NCBI GenBank assembly: GCA_963745835.1
Contig: CAVUZH010000003.1
Coordinates: forward strand, 1,280,001 to 1,344,000
From: an uncultured delta proteobacterium
GTDB taxonomy: Bacteria; Desulfobacterota; Binatia; UBA9968
Direction: 5' to 3'
DNA length: 64,000 bases
Below, one piece after another: positions 1,514 through 60,909 of the stretch; within the stretch, counting starts at the first letter, position 1; each line of letters starts with the position of its first letter. The position numbers and the translations under genes are program-made. The notes under the pieces are model-generated. The model ran no database searches. It saw only the letters and a program-made list of their open reading frames with translations, and was not told the DNA's origin.

Positions 1514-4069
1514 TCAGTTTGGGACTATAGTACCCTCCCAGACAATCTCACGCGCATCTTTATCGTCACGCAAGCCAACAAATTTGGCTGCTCGAAGATG
1601 CTTGTCCGGAGTCCATTCAACAAATTCAACTTGGGCGATCAACTCCGGCTTCAGCCAAACGCAATTTTTCATCTCCTCACGTGTTAACGCCCACTGAGTG
1701 CGTCTTTTCTCAGGCAGATTGGCAAACGGGCAAGAGTTCTCCTCTAAGCCGGCAAACTTTCGAGCGATCTCCCGTCTCACACGCGGCACAAACCCATTTC
1801 TTACCTTGGCAGCGTACAACAAGCTGTCACCTTCATAGTAGCCGACAATAACCGCGTCGAACGGATTACCTGGTGTGTATCCTCCGATGACGAAAGGTTG
1901 AAGCTTGTTTATCTTGTATTTGAGCCAAGACCGACTGCGCTTTCCGGCCTGATAGAGCGAGTTTTTCTTTTTGGCAATAATGCCCTCGAGCGATAAGTCC
2001 TTTGCCGCGGCAACGATCTCGTGCGGTGAACCGTCGATGCTTTCCGACATTCTTATGGGATCGGCAATATTTTCCAACAAGATGGCCAGCAGCTCACGCC
2101 TTTTCTCGAGGGCAACGCCCATAAGATTTTTATTCCTCTGGGCTAGAAGGTCAAACACATAGAAATGGATCTGTTTGGCGGTGAAGCGAAAATTCTGCAG
2201 AAGATTGAATGACGGTCTACCGTTGCTATCGAGCGCCACTATTTCGCCATCGAGGATCATTCCCGGTTCTACGCTTTCGAGCGCTTTTGCGATGGTCGGA
2301 AAACGCGAATTCAGCAAATTCTTTTTTCGCGAGTACAGCTTTACTCCGCTTTCATCGCACAGGGCCAGGCAACGATAGCCGTCGAGCTTTATTTCATAAC
2401 TCCATAGATCAGAATCCTCCGGCAACTCCTCGACGGTCTCGGACAGCATCGGCTCGATGAACCTGATGCGTATCTCGGGCAACTCGATAGCCGAAATCCC
2501 GTCGCCGTTGTTCGTCGCGATCTTCTTTGCCGCAGTTCTGTTGCTGTGCCAGACGGCGTCCTCCGCTTTGGCAATCTGGCCAAGACTTCGGCCTGTCAAT
2601 GCCGAAGAATTGTCTCTCTTTTCAGAGATGCGCTTCATTGCAGAGCCGGCTTTAATAAGATACCACACATTGCCTTTACCGTTGCGGTCATTCCCTTTCA
2701 CAAGCACCCATTCGCCTCTGAGCTTCTTGCCGTTTAGAAGAATATGAATTTTTCCTTTCCAAAAATTTCCATCAATGAGCTCGTAAGTTCCAATATCCCA
2801 GACCATCACGGTCCCGCCGCCATATTCTCCTGTCGGAATAATCCCTTCAAAGTTGGCGTAGTCCATCGGGTGATCTTCCGTCGCCATTGCCAACCTTCGT
2901 TCGTGTAGATCATAGGGCGGCCCCTTGGGGATCGCCCATGATTTCAAAGTGCCGCTCATTTCCAAGCGGAAATCATAATGGAGGTGACTGGCGGCATGTT
3001 TTTGTATGACAAACAGACGGCGTCCTCCTTGGCGCCTAGTGGTAGGAACAGAAGGCGCCGGTTCCCGGGTCTTAGTGAAGTCTCGTTTGCGACGATAGGG
3101 TTCAAGGGCCGCCAGGCCGGCGTCACTCGGATCACTCGAAACTTGGGGATTGAGCTGCAAGAATGGTTTTGGCAAGATTTGCTTCAAGCGCAACGACGGC
3201 GCAAACAAATCGCCAATCTTTTCCAATCTCTTCAGGGCCGCCTCTGGTTCAAAGAATAATTTAGAAGCGTCATTTGTAGCCAGCGCCGTTTCCAATTCGC
3301 GCCAACTTACCGGCATAGCGACGAACGGCCTCTCCGCCTTGGCTCTCAAAGAATACACCGCGACGGTCGACTTATGCTCTGAGTTTTGGCTCCAATCGAT
3401 GAAAACTTTTCCCTTGCGCTTGTGCTTAGCCATCTCCGACACGATCGATTTAGGGTGCTCACTGGCAAGATACTGGGCGACGCTTTGGGCAAACGCCTGC
3501 GTCATCTCGTAAGTAACATTTGTATTCAGAGGAACGTGGACGTGAATACCTTTAGACCCGGAAACCTTGAGCAAAGATTCGAGTGCCAACCGGTCGAGCA
3601 GGTCTCTCAATATAAATGCCACCTCGCAGGATTGGACGAGGCTTGCTCCCTCTCCAGGATCAAGATCGAAAACTACCATCGTCGGAACGCTAATTTCGGG
3701 TGCTTTAGCAAGAAAGGGGTGGATCTCGAGGTTGGCCAAGTTTGCCGACCATACCAGCGCCGGGAGGTCGTTGATCAGGATGTAATTGATCATCGACTCG
3801 CTGGAGCTGCGCTGTACTCGGTAAGTCTTTATCCAAGGGGGCGTAAAAGATGGGGCGTTTTTTTCGTAGAAATGCTTGCCTCGAACGCCATTCGGATATC
3901 GCTTAAGCGTAATCGGTCGATTTTCGATGTGAGGCAGTATGTAGGGTGCGACCCGGCTATAGAAATCGATGACCTGACCCTTAGTAAAGCCGGTTTCGGG
4001 ATAAAGTACTTTGTCAACGTTCGAAAGAGCGAGTTTTTTGTTGCCGATTTTGACGGACAGCGAAGCCAC
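1514..4069 (-). CDS. ligD: NHEJ DNA ligase D (polymerase - phosphoesterase - ligase order)
   Basis: N-terminal primase-polymerase (KRYPNG, FDLDP), central PE domain (FVIQKHAASHLHYDFRLE), C-terminal ATP-dependent ligase (EIKLDGYR, EGIIAK, WLKYK). Confidence 0.93.
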   Translation of the reverse strand: MASLSVKIGNKKLALSNVDKVLYPETGFTKGQVIDFYSRVAPYILPHIENRPITLKRYPNGVRGKHFYEKNAPSFTPPWIKTYRVQRSSSESMINYILINDLPALVWSANLANLEIHPFLAKAPEISVPTMVVFDLDPGEGASLVQSCEVAFILRDLLDRLALESLLKVSGSKGIHVHVPLNTNVTYEMTQAFAQSVAQYLASEHPKSIVSEMAKHKRKGKVFIDWSQNSEHKSTVAVYSLRAKAERPFVAMPVSWRELETALATNDASKLFFEPEAALKRLEKIGDLFAPSLRLKQILPKPFLQLNPQVSSDPSDAGLAALEPYRRKRDFTKTREPAPSVPTTRRQGGRRLFVIQKHAASHLHYDFRLEMSGTLKSWAIPKGPPYDLHERRLAMATEDHPMDYANFEGIIPTGEYGGGTVMVWDIGTYELIDGNFWKGKIHILLNGKKLRGEWVLVKGNDRNGKGNVWYLIKAGSAMKRISEKRDNSSALTGRSLGQIAKAEDAVWHSNRTAAKKIATNNGDGISAIELPEIRIRFIEPMLSETVEELPEDSDLWSYEIKLDGYRCLALCDESGVKLYSRKKNLLNSRFPTIAKALESVEPGMILDGEIVALDSNGRPSFNLLQNFRFTAKQIHFYVFDLLAQRNKNLMGVALEKRRELLAILLENIADPIRMSESIDGSPHEIVAAAKDLSLEGIIAKKKNSLYQAGKRSRSWLKYKINKLQPFVIGGYTPGNPFDAVIVGYYEGDSLLYAAKVRNGFVPRVRREIARKFAGLEENSCPFANLPEKRRTQWALTREEMKNCVWLKPELIAQVEFVEWTPDKHLRAAKFVGLRDDKDAREIVWEGTIVPN

Positions 4070-4139
4070 CAGGAAATTCTACCGCGCCATTGGGCAGATG
4101 CAATTGTAATCTCTTGCAAAACTCTGTTGGCACGCACTG

Positions 4140-4171
4140 AAGGGCCCGCCCTTATTGAGGGCGAGCCTTTT
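4140..4171. terminator. Inverted-repeat hairpin between ligD and the upstream gene
   Basis: AAGGGCCCGCCCT-TATTG-AGGGCGAGCCTTTT; U-tract only on the + strand. Confidence 0.4.
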
Positions 4172-4185
4172 ACCGATCGCGCGCC

Positions 4186-4947
4186 CTATGAATGATTTCG
4201 AATCGCCAATATCAGCTGCTCCCGATTCAACGCGGAAGGTTGGATATTTAACTCACGGGCTTTGGCATTGAGCTGTTGGTCGGTAAGTTTATCGAGGTCA
4301 TCAGCAGCTGTCTCATCGCCAGGCTCTTTCCTAGTTTCGCGCCCCGTAGTCCAGGAAGGCGGATCGCTGGCCGGAAATGAGTCGGCCAATGCATCGTCGA
4401 TCTCCGGCTCCGAACTTGTCTCCCGGTTCGCGCTACCGCCGCGAGTTTCTTCTACAGCCGATTCCTGTGCCGCCCTGGAGGGAGTAAATGGTTTGTTCTC
4501 CTCGTCTCGTTTAGACGCTCTTCCCATCGTCGCCGGCCCCAAAGCTGCGACCAGCCTATTCCACAAATCATACGGTATCTCCGCCTTCGGCGCATAGTAA
4601 TTCATCTCTGTAGCCTTGATGTCGGCGGTTGCGGCAAATGGCACCGAGGCCGGAATCCGCATGTCTAGGTAAACTGCGCCTTGCTTTAATTTTGTCCCTG
4701 CCGGGACGATCGGAATTTGCGACAACTCGTCGCGCGTAAACTCATCCAAACGTCCGACAAGAACTCCGATATCGGCGGCAGTGCGCGCGCCGGCATCGTT
4801 GCGTTTTGAAGAAGCTCCAATATTCTGTCCTTCCATTCGCTCAGGATTCAAATCGTCCCTCCACTCAGGTGGATGCTTTTCCTGTTCTTGCGGTTTAGGT
4901 GATCCCGCTTTCTGTTTCGTTTTTTTCTCGCTCTTGTTTGTTGCCAT
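4186..4947 (-). CDS. Hypothetical mosaic protein with DSFPASDPPSW motif and C-terminal Rho-N/HEH-like segment
   Basis: ATG at 4947 with GGAG RBS; motifs DDALADSFPASDPPSWT and LDKLTDQQLNAKARELNI...LNREQLILAI. Confidence 0.7.
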   Translation of the reverse strand: MATNKSEKKTKQKAGSPKPQEQEKHPPEWRDDLNPERMEGQNIGASSKRNDAGARTAADIGVLVGRLDEFTRDELSQIPIVPAGTKLKQGAVYLDMRIPASVPFAATADIKATEMNYYAPKAEIPYDLWNRLVAALGPATMGRASKRDEENKPFTPSRAAQESAVEETRGGSANRETSSEPEIDDALADSFPASDPPSWTTGRETRKEPGDETAADDLDKLTDQQLNAKARELNIQPSALNREQLILAIRNHS

Positions 4948-5430: not shown

Positions 5431-5790
5431 ATGATTTTATCAAGAAACGCGGACGTGAAATCACTCGTCGTCAAATCGATCGAGGGCAAGCAGATGAACG
5501 GTGATTTGCTAGTTAAGCCGCTTATCAGAGGCGATGAAATGACACTCCTGGAAATTCACTATACACCTGGTGTCGGAGCGCCTCTACATGTTCACCAACA
5601 CGAATCCTTAGCCTACGTTGTAAAAGGCAAGGTTAAGATGACGGTTGGCAAAGAAACCTACATTCTCGGGCCAGGCGATGTTTGCCGGCATCCTCAGGGC
5701 GTACCGCACGGCGTCGAAGGGATTGACGAATCCATTGTCGTTGAAATCAAATCCCCGGCTCCTGAAATTTCTACCTTCTTGGGGATGTAA
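5431..5790 (+). CDS. Cupin domain protein
   Basis: HVHQHESLAYVVKG...PQGVPHG cupin motifs. Confidence 0.85.
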   Translation: MILSRNADVKSLVVKSIEGKQMNGDLLVKPLIRGDEMTLLEIHYTPGVGAPLHVHQHESLAYVVKGKVKMTVGKETYILGPGDVCRHPQGVPHGVEGIDESIVVEIKSPAPEISTFLGM

Positions 5791-5827
5791 CCGCTCGCAC
5801 ACAACAGCACGTGGCAGGAGAACAGGT

Positions 5828-6190
5828 ATGGCCGGAAAAGCGAAATATTTAATGATCGCGAGCATGGACGTCGATCCAGAACACGATGCCATATTCAATG
5901 AGGTTTACGATAAAGAACATGTTCCGAACTTAGGCAAGGTGCCGGGTGTTCTGGGTATCACTCGATATCGCCGAGGTGAGCTCACGATGAATATCGGGGG
6001 CGAGCGCAAGACCATCGAAATTCCCAATGAACCCAGCTATGTCGCCATTTACGAATTGGACAGCCCCGACGTTCTAACCAGCGCAGCCTGGGATAAAGCG
6101 ATTGAAGATGGGCGCTGGCCGAGCCAGGTGAGACCTTACACAAAGAATCGACGCCACGTGCTCCTGAAGCTTATGGAGCCGGAGAAGTAA
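5828..6190 (+). CDS. EthD/DUF4286-like dimeric alpha-beta barrel protein
   Basis: FNEVYDKEHVPNLGKVPGV and YVAIYELDS patterns; AGGAG RBS. Confidence 0.7.
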   Translation: MAGKAKYLMIASMDVDPEHDAIFNEVYDKEHVPNLGKVPGVLGITRYRRGELTMNIGGERKTIEIPNEPSYVAIYELDSPDVLTSAAWDKAIEDGRWPSQVRPYTKNRRHVLLKLMEPEK

Positions 6191-8091: not shown

Positions 8092-11019
8092 TCAGGCCGC
8101 ATGGCGCCGTAGAGATCGGGGAATGGTAAACGTAAAGATGGAGCCGTGGCCGGGTTCACTCTCAACGCGAATCTCACCATCCAGTAAATCGAGATATTTT
8201 TTGACAATGCTGAGACCCAGACCTACGCCGTCAAATTGCCCCGTGTGAGCCTCTTTGATTTGCTCGAATTCCTGGAATATCCGGCGAACATCTTCGCTCT
8301 CAATTCCAATACCGGTGTCTGCCACGCTAAATTGAACTCGGTCTCTATCACGCAGATTGCGCACTTGGACATCGATTCGCCCTCTGGGTGTGAATTTGCA
8401 TGCGTTAGCAAGCAGATTTTGAAGAATCTCATCTAGCTTGATTGGGTCAGTAGTTATTGGCAGAACCGTTTCATCGACATCCCAGTTAACCTCCAAACGG
8501 CCGTCTCGATTGATTTGCTCCACCTGGTGCCGCGCATGCTCGATCAGTTCTTCAACTTCCACTGTTGCAAGGTCCAGCGACATTTTTCTTGCTTCGATGC
8601 GCGATAGGCTCAAAACATCATTGATCATCTTTAGCAAGACCCGGGAATTCCGCAAAATCTTCCGAATCGCTGTCTTCTGATCAGAGTTAAGGGGTCCGAA
8701 GAACTCGTCGTGCGCGAGATCGGCATTGCCAATAATGACGTGTAGCGGCGTTCGAAGCTCATGTGACATGGCCGAGATAAATTCTGATTTGGCTCGTGTT
8801 GCATCGAGAAGCTCCTGGTTGGTTTTCTCGAGCTCGGAAGTCGTTTTTTTGACTTCGGCAAATAGTCTGGCGTTTTCCACCGCAACGCCGATTTCCTGGG
8901 CAATGGACTGGATTAGCTGCCGTTCATCTTGAGAGAAGTGACGCTTGCCGCGACTGACAACATGTAAAGTTCCGGCAATGTTCTCTTTAACCATGATCGG
9001 AAATGCGGCGGCGGCTTGAAATCCCAACGAAACAATCTTACCTGCACTCGTCAACTCGCGGTATCTGGGGTCGTTGACAACGTCCTCGAAGATAAGCGAA
9101 CGGCCCGATCTTATCACCTGACCGCTAATTCCACTCTCCACATTGCGCTCGGCCATGGCTTTGGCGACTTCATCGCTGAGCCCGATTTGCCCCCGTAGAT
9201 ACAGAACTCCCTCCTCCGGCTCCAATTCGTAAATCCAGACTGCGTCGAAATTGAGTGTCTCTGAGATCTTCCTGACAGCTTCCTTGAGAACAGTTTCCAG
9301 ATTGAGCGAACGGCTTACGGCCACGCCGATGGTGTTAAGCACGGCCAGGTGCCGTGATCTCGTGTTAACCTCTTCGAATAAGTTTACCTTCTCTACCGCA
9401 ACGCCCAGATGCTCTGCCATGGAAGTGAGCAGGCGAATCTGATCGGTGCTCAGCTTTCTAGGCGATTTGCCATTGAAGATAATGGCGCCGAAAACGCAGG
9501 ACTGGGTTTTGATCGGCAGCACGCCAAAGAAACATAGCTTGGCATTCTTTGTGGCTCGACTGGTGCTGAGAGCGGCATACCGCGGATCGGTTTCAATATT
9601 TTCAAATATCATTGGCTCGCCGGACTCGACGACTCGGCCGATGACACCCTGGCCTCTTTTGAAGGTATGCACCTCGGTCCAGTGCTCCGGGTCTGCTTCA
9701 AACGAAGCTCGCAATTCCATTTGTTCCATTTCCGCGTTGAAAAGAAAAATCCGGGTCGTTTCAAATTGGAAAATGGCGGTAATCTTATCGATAACTGCCT
9801 GCAGAATAGTTTCTAGATCTAGCGATTTGTTTACAGCGCTGGTCACTTCATAGAGGGCGCCCGTTTCCTCCGTTCGCTGCTTTACTTTCTGTTCCAATGT
9901 GGCATACGAGGTCTGTAGCGCTTCGGTCATGTCATTGAACTCTTGCGCCAAGTCTTCTACTTCATCACCCGTCGTGATCTCGGCCCTGTGTTCAAGATTG
10001 CCACCGCGGATGGTTCTGACGGCCTGACGGAGTTCTTGAATCGGTCGACTGATCTTTCGACTCAGCCAAACGATGATTCCCGAACCCACAAGCAGTCCGA
10101 TGCCGATTAGCAAAATAGAATAACGGTGCAATTGCTCTAGATCCGCTAGAGCTTCAGCAGCAGGCTGCTCGACGATCACCGCCCATCTCAGGTCCGGTAC
10201 TTCGGCGTAGGTGCTTAGCACCTGTGCGCCGTTGATCCCCGCGCCAAGTTCGGCTGGAGCAGGATCGCTGGCTCGATTCGCAAGGAAGCGTTGGACCTTG
10301 GCGAGCTCGCGAAGGTTAAGACGCTTAAGCACCAGCGACGGATCCTGGTGTGCTAGCACCTCGCCATTCTCGTCGATCACGTAGGCGTAGCCACCCCGCC
10401 GAAAACGGCTGCCGGCGATCACTTCCCAAAGAAACCGAAGATTAACGTGGGCGATTAGGACACCGATGGTTTTTCGCGGAGTTTCCATCAATGGCATGGC
10501 GATGACGATGTAGGGCTCGGCACGGTCTGAAGTGCGGACCGGACCGACATAGACTTCGCCCTGAATAGCCTTAGTATAGGCTGTTTCGCCGCTCCGATTT
10601 TGCAAATCCGACGGTAGAAAGGCTAGAATCTCAGAAAATTTGAGTCTTTCCATTCCTTGACTGTCTAAGATTGAAATCTGCCTGAAAGCCGGATCGTTCT
10701 TTAGCAGCAATAATCCAATCAGACGTTGATCTTCGCTGCCGATAGGGTACCGAGTCATAAACACGCCTGCGTCCCGCAACCGCTCCACCTTGCGAGACAC
10801 GAAATGATGAATTTGCCGCGCCGATGCCGAGGCAATTTCTGTTTGCAGCGCCGCTGTCGACTCGTAGATTTGCTTCCGCGTGTAGCTCGAGCCGGCAAAC
10901 GTGCTTAGCACCAGGACGGTTCCCAACAGAATCAAGCCAAAAAGCATCAAGCGGCGTCTAATCCCGCCGATATACGGTCGAATAGTAATCTTCTGCCGAT
11001 CTCTCATCGCGGCGCTCAC
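8092..11019 (-). CDS. Membrane sensor histidine kinase (Cache-HAMP-GAF-GAF-HisKA-HATPase)
   Basis: Two TM segments around a periplasmic domain, HAMP (GDEVEDLAQEFNDM), two GAF-like repeats, H-box MSHELRTPL, N-box NLLANACKFT, DTGIG and GVGLGL. Confidence 0.92.
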   Translation of the reverse strand: MSAAMRDRQKITIRPYIGGIRRRLMLFGLILLGTVLVLSTFAGSSYTRKQIYESTAALQTEIASASARQIHHFVSRKVERLRDAGVFMTRYPIGSEDQRLIGLLLLKNDPAFRQISILDSQGMERLKFSEILAFLPSDLQNRSGETAYTKAIQGEVYVGPVRTSDRAEPYIVIAMPLMETPRKTIGVLIAHVNLRFLWEVIAGSRFRRGGYAYVIDENGEVLAHQDPSLVLKRLNLRELAKVQRFLANRASDPAPAELGAGINGAQVLSTYAEVPDLRWAVIVEQPAAEALADLEQLHRYSILLIGIGLLVGSGIIVWLSRKISRPIQELRQAVRTIRGGNLEHRAEITTGDEVEDLAQEFNDMTEALQTSYATLEQKVKQRTEETGALYEVTSAVNKSLDLETILQAVIDKITAIFQFETTRIFLFNAEMEQMELRASFEADPEHWTEVHTFKRGQGVIGRVVESGEPMIFENIETDPRYAALSTSRATKNAKLCFFGVLPIKTQSCVFGAIIFNGKSPRKLSTDQIRLLTSMAEHLGVAVEKVNLFEEVNTRSRHLAVLNTIGVAVSRSLNLETVLKEAVRKISETLNFDAVWIYELEPEEGVLYLRGQIGLSDEVAKAMAERNVESGISGQVIRSGRSLIFEDVVNDPRYRELTSAGKIVSLGFQAAAAFPIMVKENIAGTLHVVSRGKRHFSQDERQLIQSIAQEIGVAVENARLFAEVKKTTSELEKTNQELLDATRAKSEFISAMSHELRTPLHVIIGNADLAHDEFFGPLNSDQKTAIRKILRNSRVLLKMINDVLSLSRIEARKMSLDLATVEVEELIEHARHQVEQINRDGRLEVNWDVDETVLPITTDPIKLDEILQNLLANACKFTPRGRIDVQVRNLRDRDRVQFSVADTGIGIESEDVRRIFQEFEQIKEAHTGQFDGVGLGLSIVKKYLDLLDGEIRVESEPGHGSIFTFTIPRSLRRHAA

Positions 11020-55797: not shown

Positions 55798-56825
55798 ATG
55801 AAAGCGATACTATGGTTATTGCTGCTTTCTAATCTGGACCTCGAGATGCGAGAGCGCAGAGCCCTTTCTACGCAGGTAAAACCATAACAGTGGTTGCCGG
55901 GGTCAGTGCCGGAAGCGCTTACGATCTATACGCTCGGCTCATGGTCCAGCACATGGGCAAGCACATTCCCGGCAATCCCACCTTTGTCGTGCAAAACATG
56001 ACCGGGGCGGGCTCCATCATCGGCGCGAATTATCTCTACAACGTTTCTAAACCCGACGGCCTGACCATCGGAGCGATTCAGCCTTCGATATTCTTCAACC
56101 AGCTAATGAACCAGAAGGAGGTAAAATTCGATTGGGGGAAATTCACCTGGATCGGCAGTTCAGATAAGTCCGATCATCTCCTCTATATGCGCGCCGATTT
56201 GCCGTACAAGAGTCTCGCCGAAGTGCGTAGAGCTCCCGAACCCCCGAAATGCGGCTCCACCGGCGCAGGCACTTCGGGAAGTTATATTCCGAAAATGCTC
56301 GAAGAAATTCTCGGAACGAAGTTCACTATCGTTGCCGGATACCAGGGCGGCGGCGAGATCGATCTCGCAGTCGAGAGAGGCGAACTTCAATGTCGTGCTT
56401 TGACGATTCAGGCTTATCACTCGCGCGAACCTTACCACACCTGGCGCCGGACCAACTTTGCGCGCATCGTGATGCAGACCGGACGGACCCGCGATCCGCG
56501 GATAGCGGATGCTCCGACACTTCAAGAGCTCATGAACGAGCACAGAACCCCTGAATCCGGACGGCGCTTAGTGCCGCTGGTAATGGCTGGGAGCGACTTC
56601 GGCAGGCCCATTATAGCTCCTCCCGGTGTTCCTCCGGACAAGATCAAGATCTTGCGCGATGCTTTCAACAAGACGATGGCAGATCCGGAACTCTTGGCGG
56701 AAGCGAAAAGAAAGAACTTCGATATCGCGCCTACTCCCGGCGAAGAGCTCGAGGCATTGGCGAAAGAGGTAGTCGCCCAACCTCCGGAGATTGTTGAACG
56801 GCTGAAAAACCTGATGAACCAGTAA
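55798..56825 (+). CDS. Tripartite tricarboxylate transporter (Bug/TctC-like) substrate-binding protein (apparent frameshift near 55850)
   Basis: GGAGG RBS plus ATG at 55798; PFYAGKTITVV, HIPGNPTFVVQNMTGAG, KPDGLT, GYQGG..ERGE, APPGVP. Confidence 0.85.
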
Positions 56826-56970: not shown

Positions 56971-57366
56971 ATGTTCGATATCAAGGGAATCAGAACGTTT
57001 GCTATGAGTGCTAAGGATCTCGATAAGGCGGTGGATTTTTACACCAAGGTGATAGGCGGCCAGATCGTAAGAAAAGTTGAGCCCAGCGAAGAACAGCTAC
57101 AAGCCGGCCAAGTCAAGGAAGTCGATGTGCGCTTGGGAAACTTCGAAGTTCACCTGTTTGACGCGTCAATCAAGCCGCGCGATGTCGACCCACATCACAC
57201 GTTGAATATTCCCTGGCAGGAAAAGGAAAAAGCTCTGAAGTCTCTCCAAGAGATTGGCGCCAATATCGAGAAAGTGCGGCCACATCGTGACGGCGAAAGT
57301 TATTCGATCAACGTGTTCGATCCCGACGGCAACCGATGGGAGCTATCGTTCGCCAAGGGGAATTAG
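56971..57366 (+). CDS. VOC/glyoxalase family protein
   Basis: DLDKAVDFYTKVIG and FDPDGNRWEL; AAGGAGG RBS; TTGACA at 56908. Confidence 0.88.
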   Translation: MFDIKGIRTFAMSAKDLDKAVDFYTKVIGGQIVRKVEPSEEQLQAGQVKEVDVRLGNFEVHLFDASIKPRDVDPHHTLNIPWQEKEKALKSLQEIGANIEKVRPHRDGESYSINVFDPDGNRWELSFAKGN

Positions 57367-57379
57367 GCGACGGATAACT

Positions 57380-57423
57380 CGTTCAAGTAGTCAAGCCTTT
57401 CAAAGCGTTTAACGCGTTCAATC
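57380..57423 (+). repeat. Degenerate ~9-bp tandem repeat (GTTCAA core)
   Basis: TCAA/TTAA cores at 57383, 57391, 57400, 57409 and 57418. Confidence 0.55.
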
Positions 57424-57593
57424 AAAGGACAATCGGTTATCTCAATACACTGCGGGCCAATATCCTCATACACTGCCGGATTGGCACTGTATGAGGAATG
57501 AATGCTTCTGGACGATTCTTACAGGTGCGGCATATTCCACGCGTTTGCTATTCGCGAGTTGTAGACATGGAGTAATACACCGCCAGAGACCCA

Positions 57594-57615
57594 GCAGTAT
57601 ACTCAATAGTTAGGC
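57594..57615 (+). other. attI-like recombination site
   Basis: GCAGTATACTCAATA-GTTAGGC: an R core (57609-57615) with no upstream RYYYAAC box or attC hairpin. Confidence 0.55.
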
Positions 57616-57698
57616 GCCTTCGCATGTGTCCCGTAGGATGAGAGTCTTCGTTATCACTGCTGGCATCGGTCACACCGAGCCGGCCCGGAGGAGAACAA

Positions 57699-58057
57699 AT
57701 GGACCTGCAGAAGATCTACACCGCATTGCTCACCGCAGACCTTGCTGCGGCCGAAGGTTGGTATACGAAGCTGCTCGGTCGTGGACCGGACAACCGGCCG
57801 ATGGACACGCTGGTTCACTGGGAGCTCTTCGACCAGGGCGGATTGGCATTTCAAGCGACGACGAAATCGCCGGCGGGGGCGTGATGTTCCTTTACGTCGA
57901 CGATGTCGCGGCCGAGCGCCGCAGGCTGCAAGGCCTGGGCATCGTGCTTGGCAACGACATTGAGGGTGACTACTCGACGCTGGCTCAGGTACGTGATCCT
58001 GACGGAAACCTGCTCACGCTGGCGACGCCGCCGAGACGGCCTTTTCCGCCTGCATGA
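57699..58057 (+). CDS. Cassette 1: VOC/glyoxalase family protein (apparent frameshift near 57850)
   Basis: GGAGGAG RBS; MDLQKIYTALLTADLAAAEGWYTKLLG joined across a T-run to LYVDDV...VRDPDGNLLTL. Confidence 0.8.
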
Positions 58058-58090
58058 CCGCGCCGGAAAGAGCGAAATCCGCGGCATGGC

Positions 58091-58150
58091 GCCTAACAAC
58101 AGCATGCAGCTGACGGCGCTGCGCGCCGCCGCTGATGCTGAGCGTTAGCT
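58091..58150 (+). other. attC site 1 (60 bp)
   Basis: R'' GCCTAAC, 5-nt spacer, L'' CATGCAGC (extrahelical G), L' GCTGATG, 6-nt spacer, R' GTTAGCT. Confidence 0.93.
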
Positions 58151-58165
58151 ACCAAAGACTATCAA

Positions 58166-58852
58166 ATGCCACCTTCAACAGACGTCGTAAATTATCTTGG
58201 GGGGGATTTTCTTGCGGCAATCACCAACGATCTAACTGCGGTAGTGAAATTTCATGATGGTGGTATTGGAGGATTTCATAGCGTCCCGCGCGAGGTCTTC
58301 TGTTACATCGACTACATCTCGGCCATTCGATACGGTGCGAATAGCTCGGCAAATGCAATTCAGTTCATCGAAAAATATCTCGGTACCACGAATCCTCGAT
58401 ATAAGCACTATGGGAAGCTTCTCTATGAAATGTGGCGACATGGGACAGTCCATGAATTCGATCCGAAAAGACTAAAGCACTCAAACGGGAAGTACAGCGT
58501 GGGGTGGCAAACCAACAACGATTCAGGAAAAGAGGAGCGTGCATGTCATTTAGAGTGCTTCAAGGTCTATGGAAAGAGCGACACCTTTGTGCTCAACGTA
58601 AATTTATTTCAATTGGTTGATGATTTCGTCCGAGGCGTTCACGAGTTCATTTCTGAGCTGAAGAAGGCCAAAAAAAGACGCATAGAATGTCAGAACAACT
58701 ACAACGAGATATCAAGGCAACTCTCGGTCAAGGAATTAGCTAAAAAGAACAAGAAAATGAAACGCAATCTAAACCTTCAGATTTCGAGGGCTGTGAGGGC
58801 GCAGCGGCTCGAGGTACAGAACGGTAATGTAATTGGAGGCAAATGTTCCTAA
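58166..58852 (+). CDS. Cassette 2: hypothetical protein with HEPN-like Rx4H motif
   Basis: LYEMWRHGTVHEF motif after a helical region; AT-rich relative to flanks; fills the cassette. Confidence 0.75.
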   Translation: MPPSTDVVNYLGGDFLAAITNDLTAVVKFHDGGIGGFHSVPREVFCYIDYISAIRYGANSSANAIQFIEKYLGTTNPRYKHYGKLLYEMWRHGTVHEFDPKRLKHSNGKYSVGWQTNNDSGKEERACHLECFKVYGKSDTFVLNVNLFQLVDDFVRGVHEFISELKKAKKRRIECQNNYNEISRQLSVKELAKKNKKMKRNLNLQISRAVRAQRLEVQNGNVIGGKCS

Positions 58853-58856
58853 AGGC

Positions 58857-58937
58857 AGCTAACCAGCACGTGGATTCGGATACGCTATGTCGGCGCTTCG
58901 CGCCGCCTTCGCTTGCCGTTCACGCGCGGCGTTAGGC
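58857..58937 (+). other. attC site 2 (81 bp)
   Basis: R'' AGCTAAC, L'' CGTGGATT, inner hairpin CGGCGC-TTC-GCGCCG, L' GTTCACG, R' GTTAGGC. Confidence 0.9.
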
Positions 58938-58944
58938 CCTCGAC

Positions 58945-59682
58945 ATGAACAAACACTACGCGGGGCTTACGACTCGCATGTTGTCGGAGATTGAGACGAT
59001 CTCCGATAGGATGACGCATCAAGGAGAGAAGGGCCGCAACAACGAACATGTGCTGGCGGCTTTTCTCAACGAACACCTTCCAAAGCGTTACTGGATATCT
59101 ACTGGAAAGGTCATCGCTGCCGATGGCCGAGAAAGCGGCCAAGTCGATCTGATTGTTCATGACCGAATTACGACGCCAGCATTTGTTGAGGCACGAGCCT
59201 GGAGCCTTGTTCCTGTTGAGAGCGTCTACGCCGTGCTTTCCGTCAAGACAACTCTTAACAAGGAAGAATTACGAGACTCACTCGAGTCAATCTCAAAGGT
59301 CCGCGCCCTGCCACGTACGGCCGCTATCAGATACGACTCAAACCATATGGTTTCGCTTCGTGAGGACGAAACGCTTCGACCACGTGGATTTGTCTTTGCC
59401 TTCAAGAGCTCCTGGGCAACACCAGAAAGTGCAGAGAAGGCGTTTCAAGATCTCTTATCGGAATTCGACGATTCACTACGTCCCAACGCCGTGTGTGCGC
59501 TGGACCAGTGTTTGATCATCAGGCGTGCGTACACCACCGAAACGATCCTGTTTAAGGAACACGCGCTGATGCACTTCGTCGTTTTCCTCGTCCAAACTAT
59601 GGATAAGTTTCCACGGTACCAGGTCGATCTGAAGAAGTACTTTAGAGAAGACTATGGCGACAACTCCGGCAAGAAGGCCTAA
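58945..59682 (+). CDS. Cassette 3: DUF6602/NucC-like PD-(D/E)xK nuclease
   Basis: HQGEKGRNNE..FLNEHLPKRY..SGQVDLIVHD..PVESVYAVLSVK matches the NucC/DUF6602 pattern; TAA stop lies within the attC R'' box. Confidence 0.78.
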   Translation: MNKHYAGLTTRMLSEIETISDRMTHQGEKGRNNEHVLAAFLNEHLPKRYWISTGKVIAADGRESGQVDLIVHDRITTPAFVEARAWSLVPVESVYAVLSVKTTLNKEELRDSLESISKVRALPRTAAIRYDSNHMVSLREDETLRPRGFVFAFKSSWATPESAEKAFQDLLSEFDDSLRPNAVCALDQCLIIRRAYTTETILFKEHALMHFVVFLVQTMDKFPRYQVDLKKYFREDYGDNSGKKA

Positions 59683-59766
59683 CAACCGGCTCGAGTACGC
59701 GCGCGTGGCGCGCCCGACTCGCAAAATTGAGGCGCTCTTGCTCGCGGTTCAACCGGAGCATTAGGC
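59677..59766 (+). other. attC site 3 (90 bp, degenerate)
   Basis: R'' GCCTAAC, L'' GCTCGAGT, L' GTTCAAC (mismatched), R' ATTAGGC (G>A in the core). Confidence 0.8.
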
Positions 59767-59819: not shown

Positions 59820-60809
59820 TCACTTCCCGTAAAGATCGCGGATAAAGCCGCTGGCTTCAAGTTCTTTGATGATCGAATTATCGATAAACGAATTGGCGTC
59901 AGCTCCTCGGGCTTTGGGATTTTCCGGGGCAAGAAACTCCAGCACTGTTTTGACACCTTCGATGGAAGGATATGGTACTTGTTCATATTGGTTCGATGCA
60001 TAGACATCGTAAGACCGTGCGAGAAACTCTTCGCCGGCGCGATCGCTGCGCAACTTCTTTTTTAAAACCGCGACGCTTTCATTCTTATTCCTTTTGAAAT
60101 AGGCGATACCCTCGACAAAGGCTTTGGTGAATCTAACGACCGTATCGCGACGGGTGCGCAAAAATTGGCGCGTCGTGTCCAGCATCATGTTGAGATAGTA
60201 AATGTCCATATCGCCCAAATCAGCCAGCACTCGATAACCTTTATCTTCGGCGACAAAGTTTGAGGGTATGGTCAGCACGGCGGCGTCGATACCACCTTTT
60301 TCAAGATTCACGACCATCGCCGATGACGACTCGACCTGCAGCACCCGGACCTTGTCGGCGCTGATGCCCCATTTCTTGAGCATCATCAGCAATACTAGGT
60401 GCGATGCGGCGCCGTAGCGAGTAACCCCGACTCTTTTACCGATCAGGTCTGCCGGCGTCTTTACCTCGGGCCGGCTCATTACCCTCTGCACGCCCTTATT
60501 GAGGATGCCCGCGATCATCACCGTATCGGCTCCGCGCAGCGCGGCGCTAATCACCGAGTCGCCGGCTGCGGTGACAAACTGAATATCGCCAGCTATCAAT
60601 GCGCTCACGCCTCGGGCGCCGCCGCCTCCGATAACGATTACTTCGGGGTCGAGACCGTGTTTCTTAAAAAGACCTTTTTCCTCCGCGACCCAGAGGGCGC
60701 CATGCGTGGCGCTGATCGAACTCAATCCGACGCGCACTTTCTCCGACTCCGCGGCGGAGACTGAGCCATGACTCAGGAGTAAACAGAGCAAAATAAGGAA
60801 GATGATCAT
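59820..60809 (-). CDS. ABC substrate-binding protein, NMT1/SsuA-like
   Basis: Signal peptide, LWVAEEKGLFKKHGLD, DLIGKRVGVTRYG. Confidence 0.87.
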   Translation of the reverse strand: MIIFLILLCLLLSHGSVSAAESEKVRVGLSSISATHGALWVAEEKGLFKKHGLDPEVIVIGGGGARGVSALIAGDIQFVTAAGDSVISAALRGADTVMIAGILNKGVQRVMSRPEVKTPADLIGKRVGVTRYGAASHLVLLMMLKKWGISADKVRVLQVESSSAMVVNLEKGGIDAAVLTIPSNFVAEDKGYRVLADLGDMDIYYLNMMLDTTRQFLRTRRDTVVRFTKAFVEGIAYFKRNKNESVAVLKKKLRSDRAGEEFLARSYDVYASNQYEQVPYPSIEGVKTVLEFLAPENPKARGADANSFIDNSIIKELEASGFIRDLYGK

Positions 60810-60909
60810 ACACGACCTAGAGAACGCGCCTTCGCCGTCGTCTACATGGATGGCAACCGTAGATCCGTTCACAGCAACATAGTTGAAGCCGACAAGCGCT
60901 TAGCCATGG

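Follow-up and report, generated by a model that had tools for sequence, protein, structure and literature searches.

How a set of integron cassettes comes to stand in a genome in which no intact integron integrase is found is the question raised by positions 57594-59766 of a 64-kb stretch of DNA. The stretch, referred to as the window, corresponds to positions C3:1280001-1344000 of the source genome (G000), and coordinates without a contig name are positions in the window. An initial annotation, made from the letters of the window alone, described the region as an array of integron cassettes without an integrase gene (intI). The covariance models of attC sites and the integrase searches described below agree with this description. 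The region is a real three-cassette integron array that has very probably lost intI and has kept its attI insertion site. It is a cluster of attC sites lacking an integron integrase (CALIN), which is a known kind of element. The unusual aspects of the array are the retention of a recognisable attI site and spacer next to integrase-less cassettes, the recurrence of this arrangement in the genome and in its bacterial family, and the lineage in which it is found.

attC sites and cassette boundaries

The attC sites were searched for with covariance models from which the window sequence was excluded, to avoid a circular test of the sites proposed in the initial annotation. The curated integron-integrase model TIGR02249 was used first to locate intI-bearing integrons among the relatives of G000, and attC sites were harvested with a simple finder from the intI-adjacent arrays of genomes G048, G052, and G024. 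Six sites of approximately 60 nucleotides from the intI-bearing integrons of these three relatives, aligned as bottom strands, form model R1. Alignments of attC sites of mixed lengths calculated in MAFFT (A1 and A2) were dropped because the R boxes were misaligned in them. Model R2 contains 23 sequences from matches in the loci of relatives. In the whole 64-kb window, R1 has exactly three matches at E ≤ 10. All three fall on the minus (bottom) strand, with scores of 38.3 bits (E = 1.6e-8) for attC1, 21.7 bits (E = 1.3e-3) for attC2, and 21.2 bits (E = 1.9e-3) for attC3. The scores of R2 are 50.4, 27.6, and 23.4 bits, respectively, and there is no further match at E ≤ 1. The matches of the two models coincide to the base with the three sites claimed before:

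58091-58150, minus strand: attC1; R'' box GCCTAAC, R' box GTTAGCT; matched by R1 and R2; folding z-score -3.35
58857-58937, minus strand: attC2; R'' box AGCTAAC, R' box GTTAGGC; matched by R1 and R2; folding z-score -0.96
59677-59766, minus strand: attC3, the terminal site; R'' box GCCTAAC, degenerate R' box ATTAGGC; folding z-score -2.82

The boxes of attC sites have the consensus sequences RYYYAAC for R'' and GTTRRRY for R'. All the anatomical features of an attC site are present in attC1. Its stem is composed of the R box, a small internal loop, six base pairs, an unpaired base, four base pairs, and another unpaired base. The unpaired bases are positioned on the 3' arm of the bottom strand, which is a pattern common to the attC sites of relatives. 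Both boxes are present in attC2 and its fold is weak. The attC3 site has a good R'' box and fold, and its R' box begins with ATT and not with GTT; this site was overlooked by the heuristic attC finder. The R'' box of attC3 includes the TAA stop codon of the open reading frame of cassette 3. Compared with shuffled sequences, the folding of attC1 and attC3 is strong, and that of attC2 is weak. Chance palindromes or repetitive extragenic palindromic (REP) elements were considered in place of attC sites and rejected. The three sites are co-oriented and, according to both models, spaced 707-740 bp apart, which places the region within the definition of a CALIN as at least two attC sites within 4 kb.

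Crossover points between positions 57609 and 57610, 58144 and 58145, 58931 and 58932, and 59760 and 59761 delimit three cassettes:

57610-58144, plus strand: cassette 1; 535 bp, GC content 0.626; VOC/glyoxalase-like gene with a one-base frameshift near 57847
58145-58931, plus strand: cassette 2; 787 bp, GC content 0.468; open reading frame 58166-58852, 228 amino acids, unnamed family, candidate HEPN-like protein
58932-59760, plus strand: cassette 3; 829 bp, GC content 0.528; open reading frame 58945-59682, 245 amino acids, NucC-fold protein (DUF6602) in which Ser replaces the catalytic Glu

Of the first ten bases of the three cassettes, 10, 9, and 9, respectively, pair with the R'' box of the same cassette, compared to 5-8 of 10 in the six cross pairings. 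A better match to this box than to that of the preceding attC site is expected because IntI would have inserted the cassettes at the bottom-strand boundary between G and TT. The homology of the region to genomes G004, G005, and G003, as well as the ends of metagenome contigs, breaks at the crossover points, to within a shared TTAG, which characterises the cassettes as discrete units bounded between G and TT. The pairing of each cassette with its own R'' box had been reported in the initial annotation, as had the difference in base composition between a GC-rich cassette 1 and an AT-rich cassette 2, which is borne out by the GC contents listed above (0.52 for the window). The description of the array as three co-oriented open reading frames is correct in that the units are co-oriented; the frame of cassette 1 is not intact, since reading passes from the piece at 57699-57884 into that of 57626-58057.

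The attI site and the intI-attI spacer

The left boundary of the array is, as judged from homology, the attI core of the integrons of this bacterial family. The boundary is composed of two elements:

57594-57615, plus strand: attI core, CAGCAGTATACTCAATAG followed by TTAGG; crossover between 57609 and 57610; homologous to attI downstream of intI in relatives
57439-57608, plus strand: remnant of the intI-attI spacer with three direct repeats and a degenerate promoter-like pair; aligned with relatives

The integrons of the family are chromosomal and have the gene order intI, attI, cassettes, with all elements in the same direction and attI positioned 150-185 bp after the intI stop codon. Accordingly placed cores, CAGTATACTCAATGGTTAG, are found past the ends of the full-length intI genes of G048, G024, and G021, on the same strand and with cassettes downstream. 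In G002, which belongs to the same genus as G000, the stretch of repeats and core starts approximately 20 bp after the intI stop codon. The window stretch 57439-57615 (about 177 bp) aligns with this post-intI stretch of G002, with attI copies on contigs C9, C14, and C19 of G000, and with G004. Because the same stretch follows a co-oriented intI in relatives, it can be interpreted as a complete intI-attI spacer together with attI. The 22-base junction recurs three more times in G000, on the same contigs C9, C14, and C19, each time with approximately 170 bp of related sequence upstream and different DNA downstream.

The attI core is present at about 90 sites in 47 of 90 family genomes, and the reversed control has two matches. 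The tallies for the family include three unpublished genomes (G012, G018, and G072), from which no specific locus is used here. Of the core-bearing genomes, many of which are fragmented metagenome-assembled genomes (MAGs), 21 are without an IntI match at E ≤ 1e-30. The copies of attI exceed the intI genes in several family genomes.

The direct repeats of the spacer, ATACACYGC, start at 57445, 57468, and 57575. The promoter-like pair has the form TGGACG-N-CATATT in the window, whereas the C14 copy and G004 have the intact form, TTGACA-N18-GATATT. The integrase-binding repeats and the Pc promoter of attI1 provide a model for the functions of such a spacer. By analogy, we infer that the ATACACYGC repeats bind IntI and that the TTGACA-type pair is a cassette promoter.

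In G002, a genome with an intact intI, the attI core on contig C328 (locus L030) is followed first by two open reading frames (2806-4842), a recombinase-like one of 282 amino acids and another of 391 amino acids. This gene pair looks like an insertion element sitting in attI and not like a cassette.

Search for an integrase in the genome

The assembly of G000 consists of 25 contigs with a completeness of 97.1% and a contamination of 9.33%. It does not contain a match to TIGR02249 at E ≤ 1e-30, nor one over the cut-off of the model, which is exceeded in 33 of 90 family genomes and in none of 14 control genomes. Within the 64-kb window, the searches with PF00589, TIGR02249, and tblastn of IntI did not identify any tyrosine recombinase, in agreement with the initial annotation. 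The 15 matches to PF00589 in G000 include none closer to the array than C3:1265887-1266414, which is approximately 14 kb before the start of the window and 71 kb from the array; a CALIN is defined by the lack of an integron integrase within 4-10 kb. The tblastn search of G000 with the IntI of G002 detected only XerC/D-like genes and short C-terminal remnants of IntI, none of them near the array. Thus, the genome-wide search for IntI, which the initial annotation had proposed as a check, found no intact IntI in G000, only the following remnants away from the array:

C14:9668-9790: C-terminal remnant of IntI, 90% identity to residues 314-354 of the IntI of G002 (tblastn)
C14:588369-588479, C3:391951-392088, C18:529107-529262, and C16:16051-16242: further C-terminal remnants of IntI (tblastn)

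Model R2 has at least 25 attC matches (E ≤ 0.01) in G000 at no fewer than about ten loci, with 150 of 3408 candidates scored. The loci with matches include:

C14:1-8126
C14:588369-597000
C16:346000-350500
C13:135512-136918
C15:278139-280304
C18:528183-529262
C3:391235-392088
C9:28019-29261
C19:41394-42168

When R2 was applied to fetched stretches of these contigs, nine attC sites and an attI were found at the start of C14, eight attC sites beside the IntI remnant at 588-597 kb of C14, four attC sites on C16, and one attC site each on C9 and C19, following their own attI. In total, G000 contains four copies of attI, at least five short C-terminal remnants of IntI, and no intact IntI. The many attC loci and the lack of an intact IntI indicate that there are many integrase-less arrays in G000. 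At the start of C14, the IntI remnant (9668-9790) is approximately 1.5 kb from attI (8105-8126), not 180 bp, which suggests an insertion between the two.

The array in the window differs from a complete integron, in which intI adjoins attI: attI is present by homology, and intI is absent according to the searches of the window. The closest named relatives of the family's IntI are from MAGs labelled Candidatus Binatia bacterium. A full-text literature search found no paper pairing Binatia or Binatota with an integron, and supplementary files may list such lineages.

The locus in related genomes and in metagenomes

The array is flanked by two genes that do not belong to the cassettes:

56971-57366, plus strand: VOC/glyoxalase gene of the left flank; Pfam Glyoxalase 1.4e-14; conserved, not a cassette
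59820-60872, minus strand: NMT1/SsuA-like binding protein gene of the right flank; Pfam NMT1 1.5e-25

Amidohydrolase, TctC, VOC, NMT1/SsuA-like, and acyl-CoA dehydrogenase genes surround the array, consistent with its earlier placement in a catabolic region. The VOC gene of the left flank is positioned beside the same neighbours in G002, G007, G008, and G020, all of which are without the array. In G002 and G007, both of the same genus as G000, the amidohydrolase and VOC genes are followed after approximately 110 bp by the acyl-CoA dehydrogenase gene. Since neither the array nor the SsuA-like gene is present, G002 and G007 represent the empty site. The TctC gene (55890-56825) is also missing from this otherwise syntenic region of G002 and G007, and the absence of both the TctC and SsuA-like genes indicates that the neighbourhood is variable beyond the array.

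The homology to G004 (same genus, 90% identity) covers the VOC gene as well as the intergenic region and ends at position 57613, after which the DNA is different. Downstream of the shared VOC-attI junction, G004 contains a TMEM175-like gene and attC-like sites, together with the fragment of a truncated recombinase and a toxin-antitoxin-like pair. The fragment (contig C292, locus L020, 4837-5268) is 143 amino acids long, resembles the N-terminal domain of tyrosine recombinases, and is encoded on the opposite strand. In the toxin-antitoxin-like pair (5474-5960), an antitoxin-like open reading frame is followed by an apparently frameshifted toxin-like gene that ends in a good attC site (5948-6006, 59.6 bits). 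In G005 and G003, the homology begins at approximately 59758-59762 and includes the right flank, with other DNA to the left. The right-flank gene is 87-88% identical in these two genomes, where it is located next to other DNA. The contig of G003 that contains the VOC gene ends at position 57438, exactly where the repeated spacer starts. The genes of cassettes 2 and 3 are sporadic: each was found in one of the 89 other family genomes, at 29-33% identity. The possibility that the three genes form a fixed operon was therefore rejected, given that relatives have an empty site (G002 and G007) or other cassettes at the same attI (G004). The comparison with relatives, as well as the use of an attC covariance model, had been suggested in the initial annotation, and both support the array.

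Near-identical sequence (at least half of the sampled words) is present in 14 DNA runs; the 20 rows with such sequence come from 14 studies. The DNA runs listed are soil or rhizosphere metagenomes, or do not have an organism label. Logan contigs of four runs were compared with the locus. Such contigs show presence and not absence, drop rare forms, and can mislead at repeats; the parts of the stretch that are uncovered in runs X1 and X15 are therefore not evidence of absence. The loose ends and divergence points of the contigs, at 57609 and 57613, 58088-58095, 58144-58148, and 59761, correspond to the crossover points to within the shared TTAG. In X6, a near-identical attI contig (1 mismatch in 103) runs into other DNA. 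A contig from X15, an RNA library, spans the locus-specific positions 57375-57613 at approximately 93% identity and then enters a first cassette of a third type. In X10, cassette 1 is preceded by a different attC-like end. The attC1 site alone is common to many metagenome contigs, with other DNA on both sides. No joints were found among the Logan contigs of the four runs, and thus no direct sign of excision or circles; the contigs drop rare forms.

Genes of the cassettes

The gene of cassette 1 is broken. Its match to Pfam Glyoxalase has a score of 16.3 bits, below the cut-off of 20.6, and covers only the C-terminal half. Relatives in X10 have one extra base behind 57847, which restores the frame according to the letters of the contigs. 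Most of the depth in X1, which may be the source sample, agrees with the window at the frameshift, and cassette 1 is therefore probably a real pseudogene in this strain. The gene upstream of attI (56971-57366) and the broken gene of cassette 1 (57699-58057) are both of the VOC/glyoxalase type; there is no sign that this is more than a coincidence.

The protein encoded by cassette 2 does not have a match in Pfam, NCBIfam, or PADLOC, and its weak PHROG match is of unknown function. No sequence match was found in the PDB, either with the single sequence or with a profile, and the ESM Atlas returned only unnamed clusters. The family includes 243 representative clusters at E ≤ 1e-3, with proteins of approximately 200-240 amino acids. 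A Pfam scan of 46 family members provided only single chance matches and no HEPN family. The motif that defines HEPN proteins is Rx4-6H. In the alignment of the 46 members, H96 is invariant, and R91 and H92 almost so, which forms R-x4-H. More broadly, residues Y79, R91, H92, G93, H96, P100, and W114 are conserved in the family (proteins P0076-P0225). The AlphaFold model of the protein has a pLDDT of 95.4, and a Foldseek search with it against the PDB had no match at E ≤ 0.001. The VIA-align comparison resulted in Z-scores of 6.3 to 7ae2 and 8xdj and 5.4 to AbiV (9bj5), a level that is common for helical bundles. The odds that cassette 2 encodes a HEPN-like RNase are about even.

The protein encoded by cassette 3 matches DUF6602 in Pfam (3.2e-27), the NucC effector in PADLOC (8.8e-37), and, by sequence, NucC in the PDB (8.6e-20). 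Its predicted model aligns with the structure of cAAA-bound NucC from E. coli (6p7p_C) over 237 columns with a Foldseek E-value of 7.2e-19 and a TM-score of 0.84, which corresponds to the full-length NucC fold. According to Lau et al. (bioRxiv 10.1101/694703), the motif of NucC is IDx30EAK, and residues Asp73 and Glu104 bind Mg. The corresponding residues of the cassette 3 protein, V67-D68, then 30 residues, then S99-V100-K101, deviate from this active-site motif. The position equivalent to Glu104 is occupied by Ser in 62 and by Ala in 7 of 69 close homologues (P0001-P0069), and the substitution is thus a feature of the clade and not a sign of decay. Residues D68, D73, E92, and K101 are invariant in the clade. 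In G000, at its completeness of 97.1%, no cyclase partner was detected, as there is no SMODS match and no Csm1/Cmr2 (Cas10) match over the cut-off, and a second DUF6602 gene was not found. The search of genome contigs for loci related to cassette 3 identified one locus, L034 on a contig of another MAG, where an 84%-identical copy of the gene begins directly after an attC match. This position indicates that the gene travels as a cassette. The L034 copy breaks off after residue 74, where it is interrupted by a stretch containing long inverted repeats (1164-1240). This stretch may be a small insertion or the product of a chimeric assembly.

Origin and function of the array

Very probably, a sedentary chromosomal integron lost its intI here and left its cassette platform, which is a CALIN in the terms of IntegronFinder. 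In the ancestral integron, intI would have been located upstream of the cassettes and co-oriented with them, with attI approximately 150-185 bp after its stop codon; here the spacer and attI come directly after the conserved VOC gene. As is expected from established integron biology, the cassettes would have entered as circles, one at a time, by IntI-mediated recombination between attI and attC, in which IntI recombines the folded bottom strand of attC between G and TT. Each of the resulting three promoterless cassettes is closed by an attC site, and their expression would rely on the promoter-like element of the spacer, which is weakened here. With no intact IntI in the genome, the array cannot rearrange by itself. 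It would therefore be frozen, and change only through an integrase acting in trans, or through ordinary recombination and decay. Signs of decay are the frameshifted gene of cassette 1, the R' box of the terminal attC site, which starts with ATT, and the weakened promoter-like element. The cargo would consist of the dead VOC gene, the candidate HEPN-like protein, and a protein with the NucC fold that has neither the metal-binding Glu nor a signal-making partner.

Several points weigh against this reading. The covariance models are home-made and small and are not those of IntegronFinder, their E-values are rough, and attC2 and attC3 reach only 21-28 bits; in addition, attC2 does not fold better than its shuffled versions. 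A scan for consensus promoters did not call any on the plus strand ahead of the cassettes. The array does not have a remnant of intI beside it, and the loss at the locus is deduced from the homology of the spacer. It is also possible that intI is present in an unassembled part of the genome, or that the four copies of attI stem from more than one strain, considering the number of contigs and the contamination of the assembly. The missing remnant would fit cassettes that were inserted at a secondary, non-attI site of a locus that was never an integron platform, and off-target insertion of cassettes by IntI has been reported (bioRxiv 10.1101/2022.09.11.507474). This origin is, however, extremely improbable, as the junction contains the attI core of the family together with about 177 bp of the spacer found after intI in relatives. 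An alternative that deserves more weight, and that the initial annotation had named beside an orphaned array, is that the array is still serviced in trans by an intact IntI, which would be encoded in an unassembled part of the genome or transferred in at times, and would act on all copies of attI. At least three different first cassettes are found behind the same intI-less VOC-attI junction (in the window, in G004, and in the 93%-identical contig of X15), the attI contig of X6 leads into other DNA, and cassette 1 of X10 is preceded by a different attC-like end. The surplus of attI copies over intI genes in the family and the 21 attI-bearing genomes without an IntI match point in the same direction, and the use of CALIN cassettes in trans is discussed by Cury et al. 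2016 (PMC4889954). Nevertheless, servicing in trans is unlikely. No IntI over the cut-off was found in a 97% complete assembly, and the different first cassettes are also explained by deletions from a longer ancestral array, which do not require an integrase. Logan contigs can join repeats of different genomes, and do not contain excision joints, whereas the degenerate R' box and the frameshift point towards decay. Equally unlikely, in our estimate, is the broader proposal that the integron of this soil lineage is a distributed system, in which several intI-less attI pads with their own spacer and promoter are loaded and unloaded in trans. If this were true, a single or transiently present integrase would keep the turnover of cassettes going at intI-less platforms such as this one.

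Former integron platform or not, the array has cargo whose function can be considered separately. The products of cassettes 2 and 3 may be toxic nucleases or defence proteins, judging from their predicted folds and motifs, and a defence role of the array is plausible. In its strongest form, the array would be an active anti-phage island, in which the HEPN-like RNase of cassette 2 and the NucC-like nuclease of cassette 3 each protect by abortive infection. Phage-defence genes in integron cassettes are already in print, and a cassette with a HEPN AbiU2 domain is reported to confer resistance to phages T4 and T7 (bioRxiv 10.64898/2026.03.17.712381). The NucC effector match and fold of cassette 3, the R-x4-H motif of cassette 2 and its structural matches to HEPN toxins and AbiV are in line with such a function, and a contig from an RNA library covers positions 59091-59380 with two differences. 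Nevertheless, an active island is somewhat doubtful. The equivalent of the Mg-binding Glu104 is Ser or Ala in all 69 close homologues of the cassette 3 protein, and G000 does not have a SMODS cyclase or a Cas10 over the cut-off. The HEPN fold match of cassette 2 is within the chance range for helical bundles and is not accompanied by a HEPN match in Pfam. The promoter-like element is weak, and the contig from the RNA library does not prove transcription. The defence bias ascribed to the array in the initial annotation is thus partly supported: the NucC match and fold of cassette 3 speak for it, although this protein lacks the catalytic Glu and the genome a cyclase; cassette 2 is only weakly HEPN-like, and cassette 1 is a broken VOC gene.

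Comparison with known systems

The array does not change the understanding of what integrons are. CALINs are common and usually anonymous: their origin from a decayed integron, a split array, or an off-site insertion is rarely told because their attI sites cannot be recognised. Here, both attI and the spacer can be, and they identify this CALIN as a former or trans-served integron platform. Orphan platforms recur across the family of soil bacteria, as is evident from the attI core in 47 of 90 genomes, 21 of which are without an IntI match, and provide a concrete system for asking whether integrases act on them in trans. The cargo adds two candidate nuclease families, of which one does not have a Pfam name, and also a NucC clade without the canonical catalytic Glu.

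The cassette 2 protein shares a helical bundle with R-x4-H with the HEPN toxins and AbiV (7ae2, 8xdj, 5yep, and 9bj5), which are among its best structural matches. It differs from them in that the matches are weak (Z-scores of 5.4-6.3, 3-13% identity), Pfam HEPN families do not match, and the predicted structure has a beta sheet insertion and further helices at its C terminus. The cassette 3 protein has the full-length fold, the Asp of the ID motif (as D68), and the Lys of EAK (as K101) in common with NucC, the cyclic tri-AMP-activated endonuclease of the cyclic oligonucleotide-based antiphage signalling system (CBASS) and type III CRISPR. In contrast to NucC, it has Ser99 at the position of Glu104 and is encoded by a lone promoterless gene in a genome without a CD-NTase or Cas10. 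A bold reading of the predicted model is that the protein could be a binder of cyclic tri-AMP or a signal-independent nuclease, and not a CBASS effector.

Sedentary chromosomal integrons of the "inverted integrase" group, such as that of Treponema, have intI co-oriented with the cassettes. The integrons of the relatives of G000 are similar to these, as their intI, attI, and cassettes are read in the same direction in the chromosome, whereas the window is without intI. According to Cury et al. 2016 (PMC4889954), CALINs are abundant; half of them occur in genomes that lack intI, and 95% have no intI pseudogene close by. The array shares with the CALINs described there a minimum of two attC sites in the same orientation within 4 kb, the lack of intI nearby or in the genome, and cassettes with few database homologues. 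Unlike them, it has a recognisable attI and a whole spacer, its platform is present four times in the genome, and other cassettes are inserted at the same attI in relatives.

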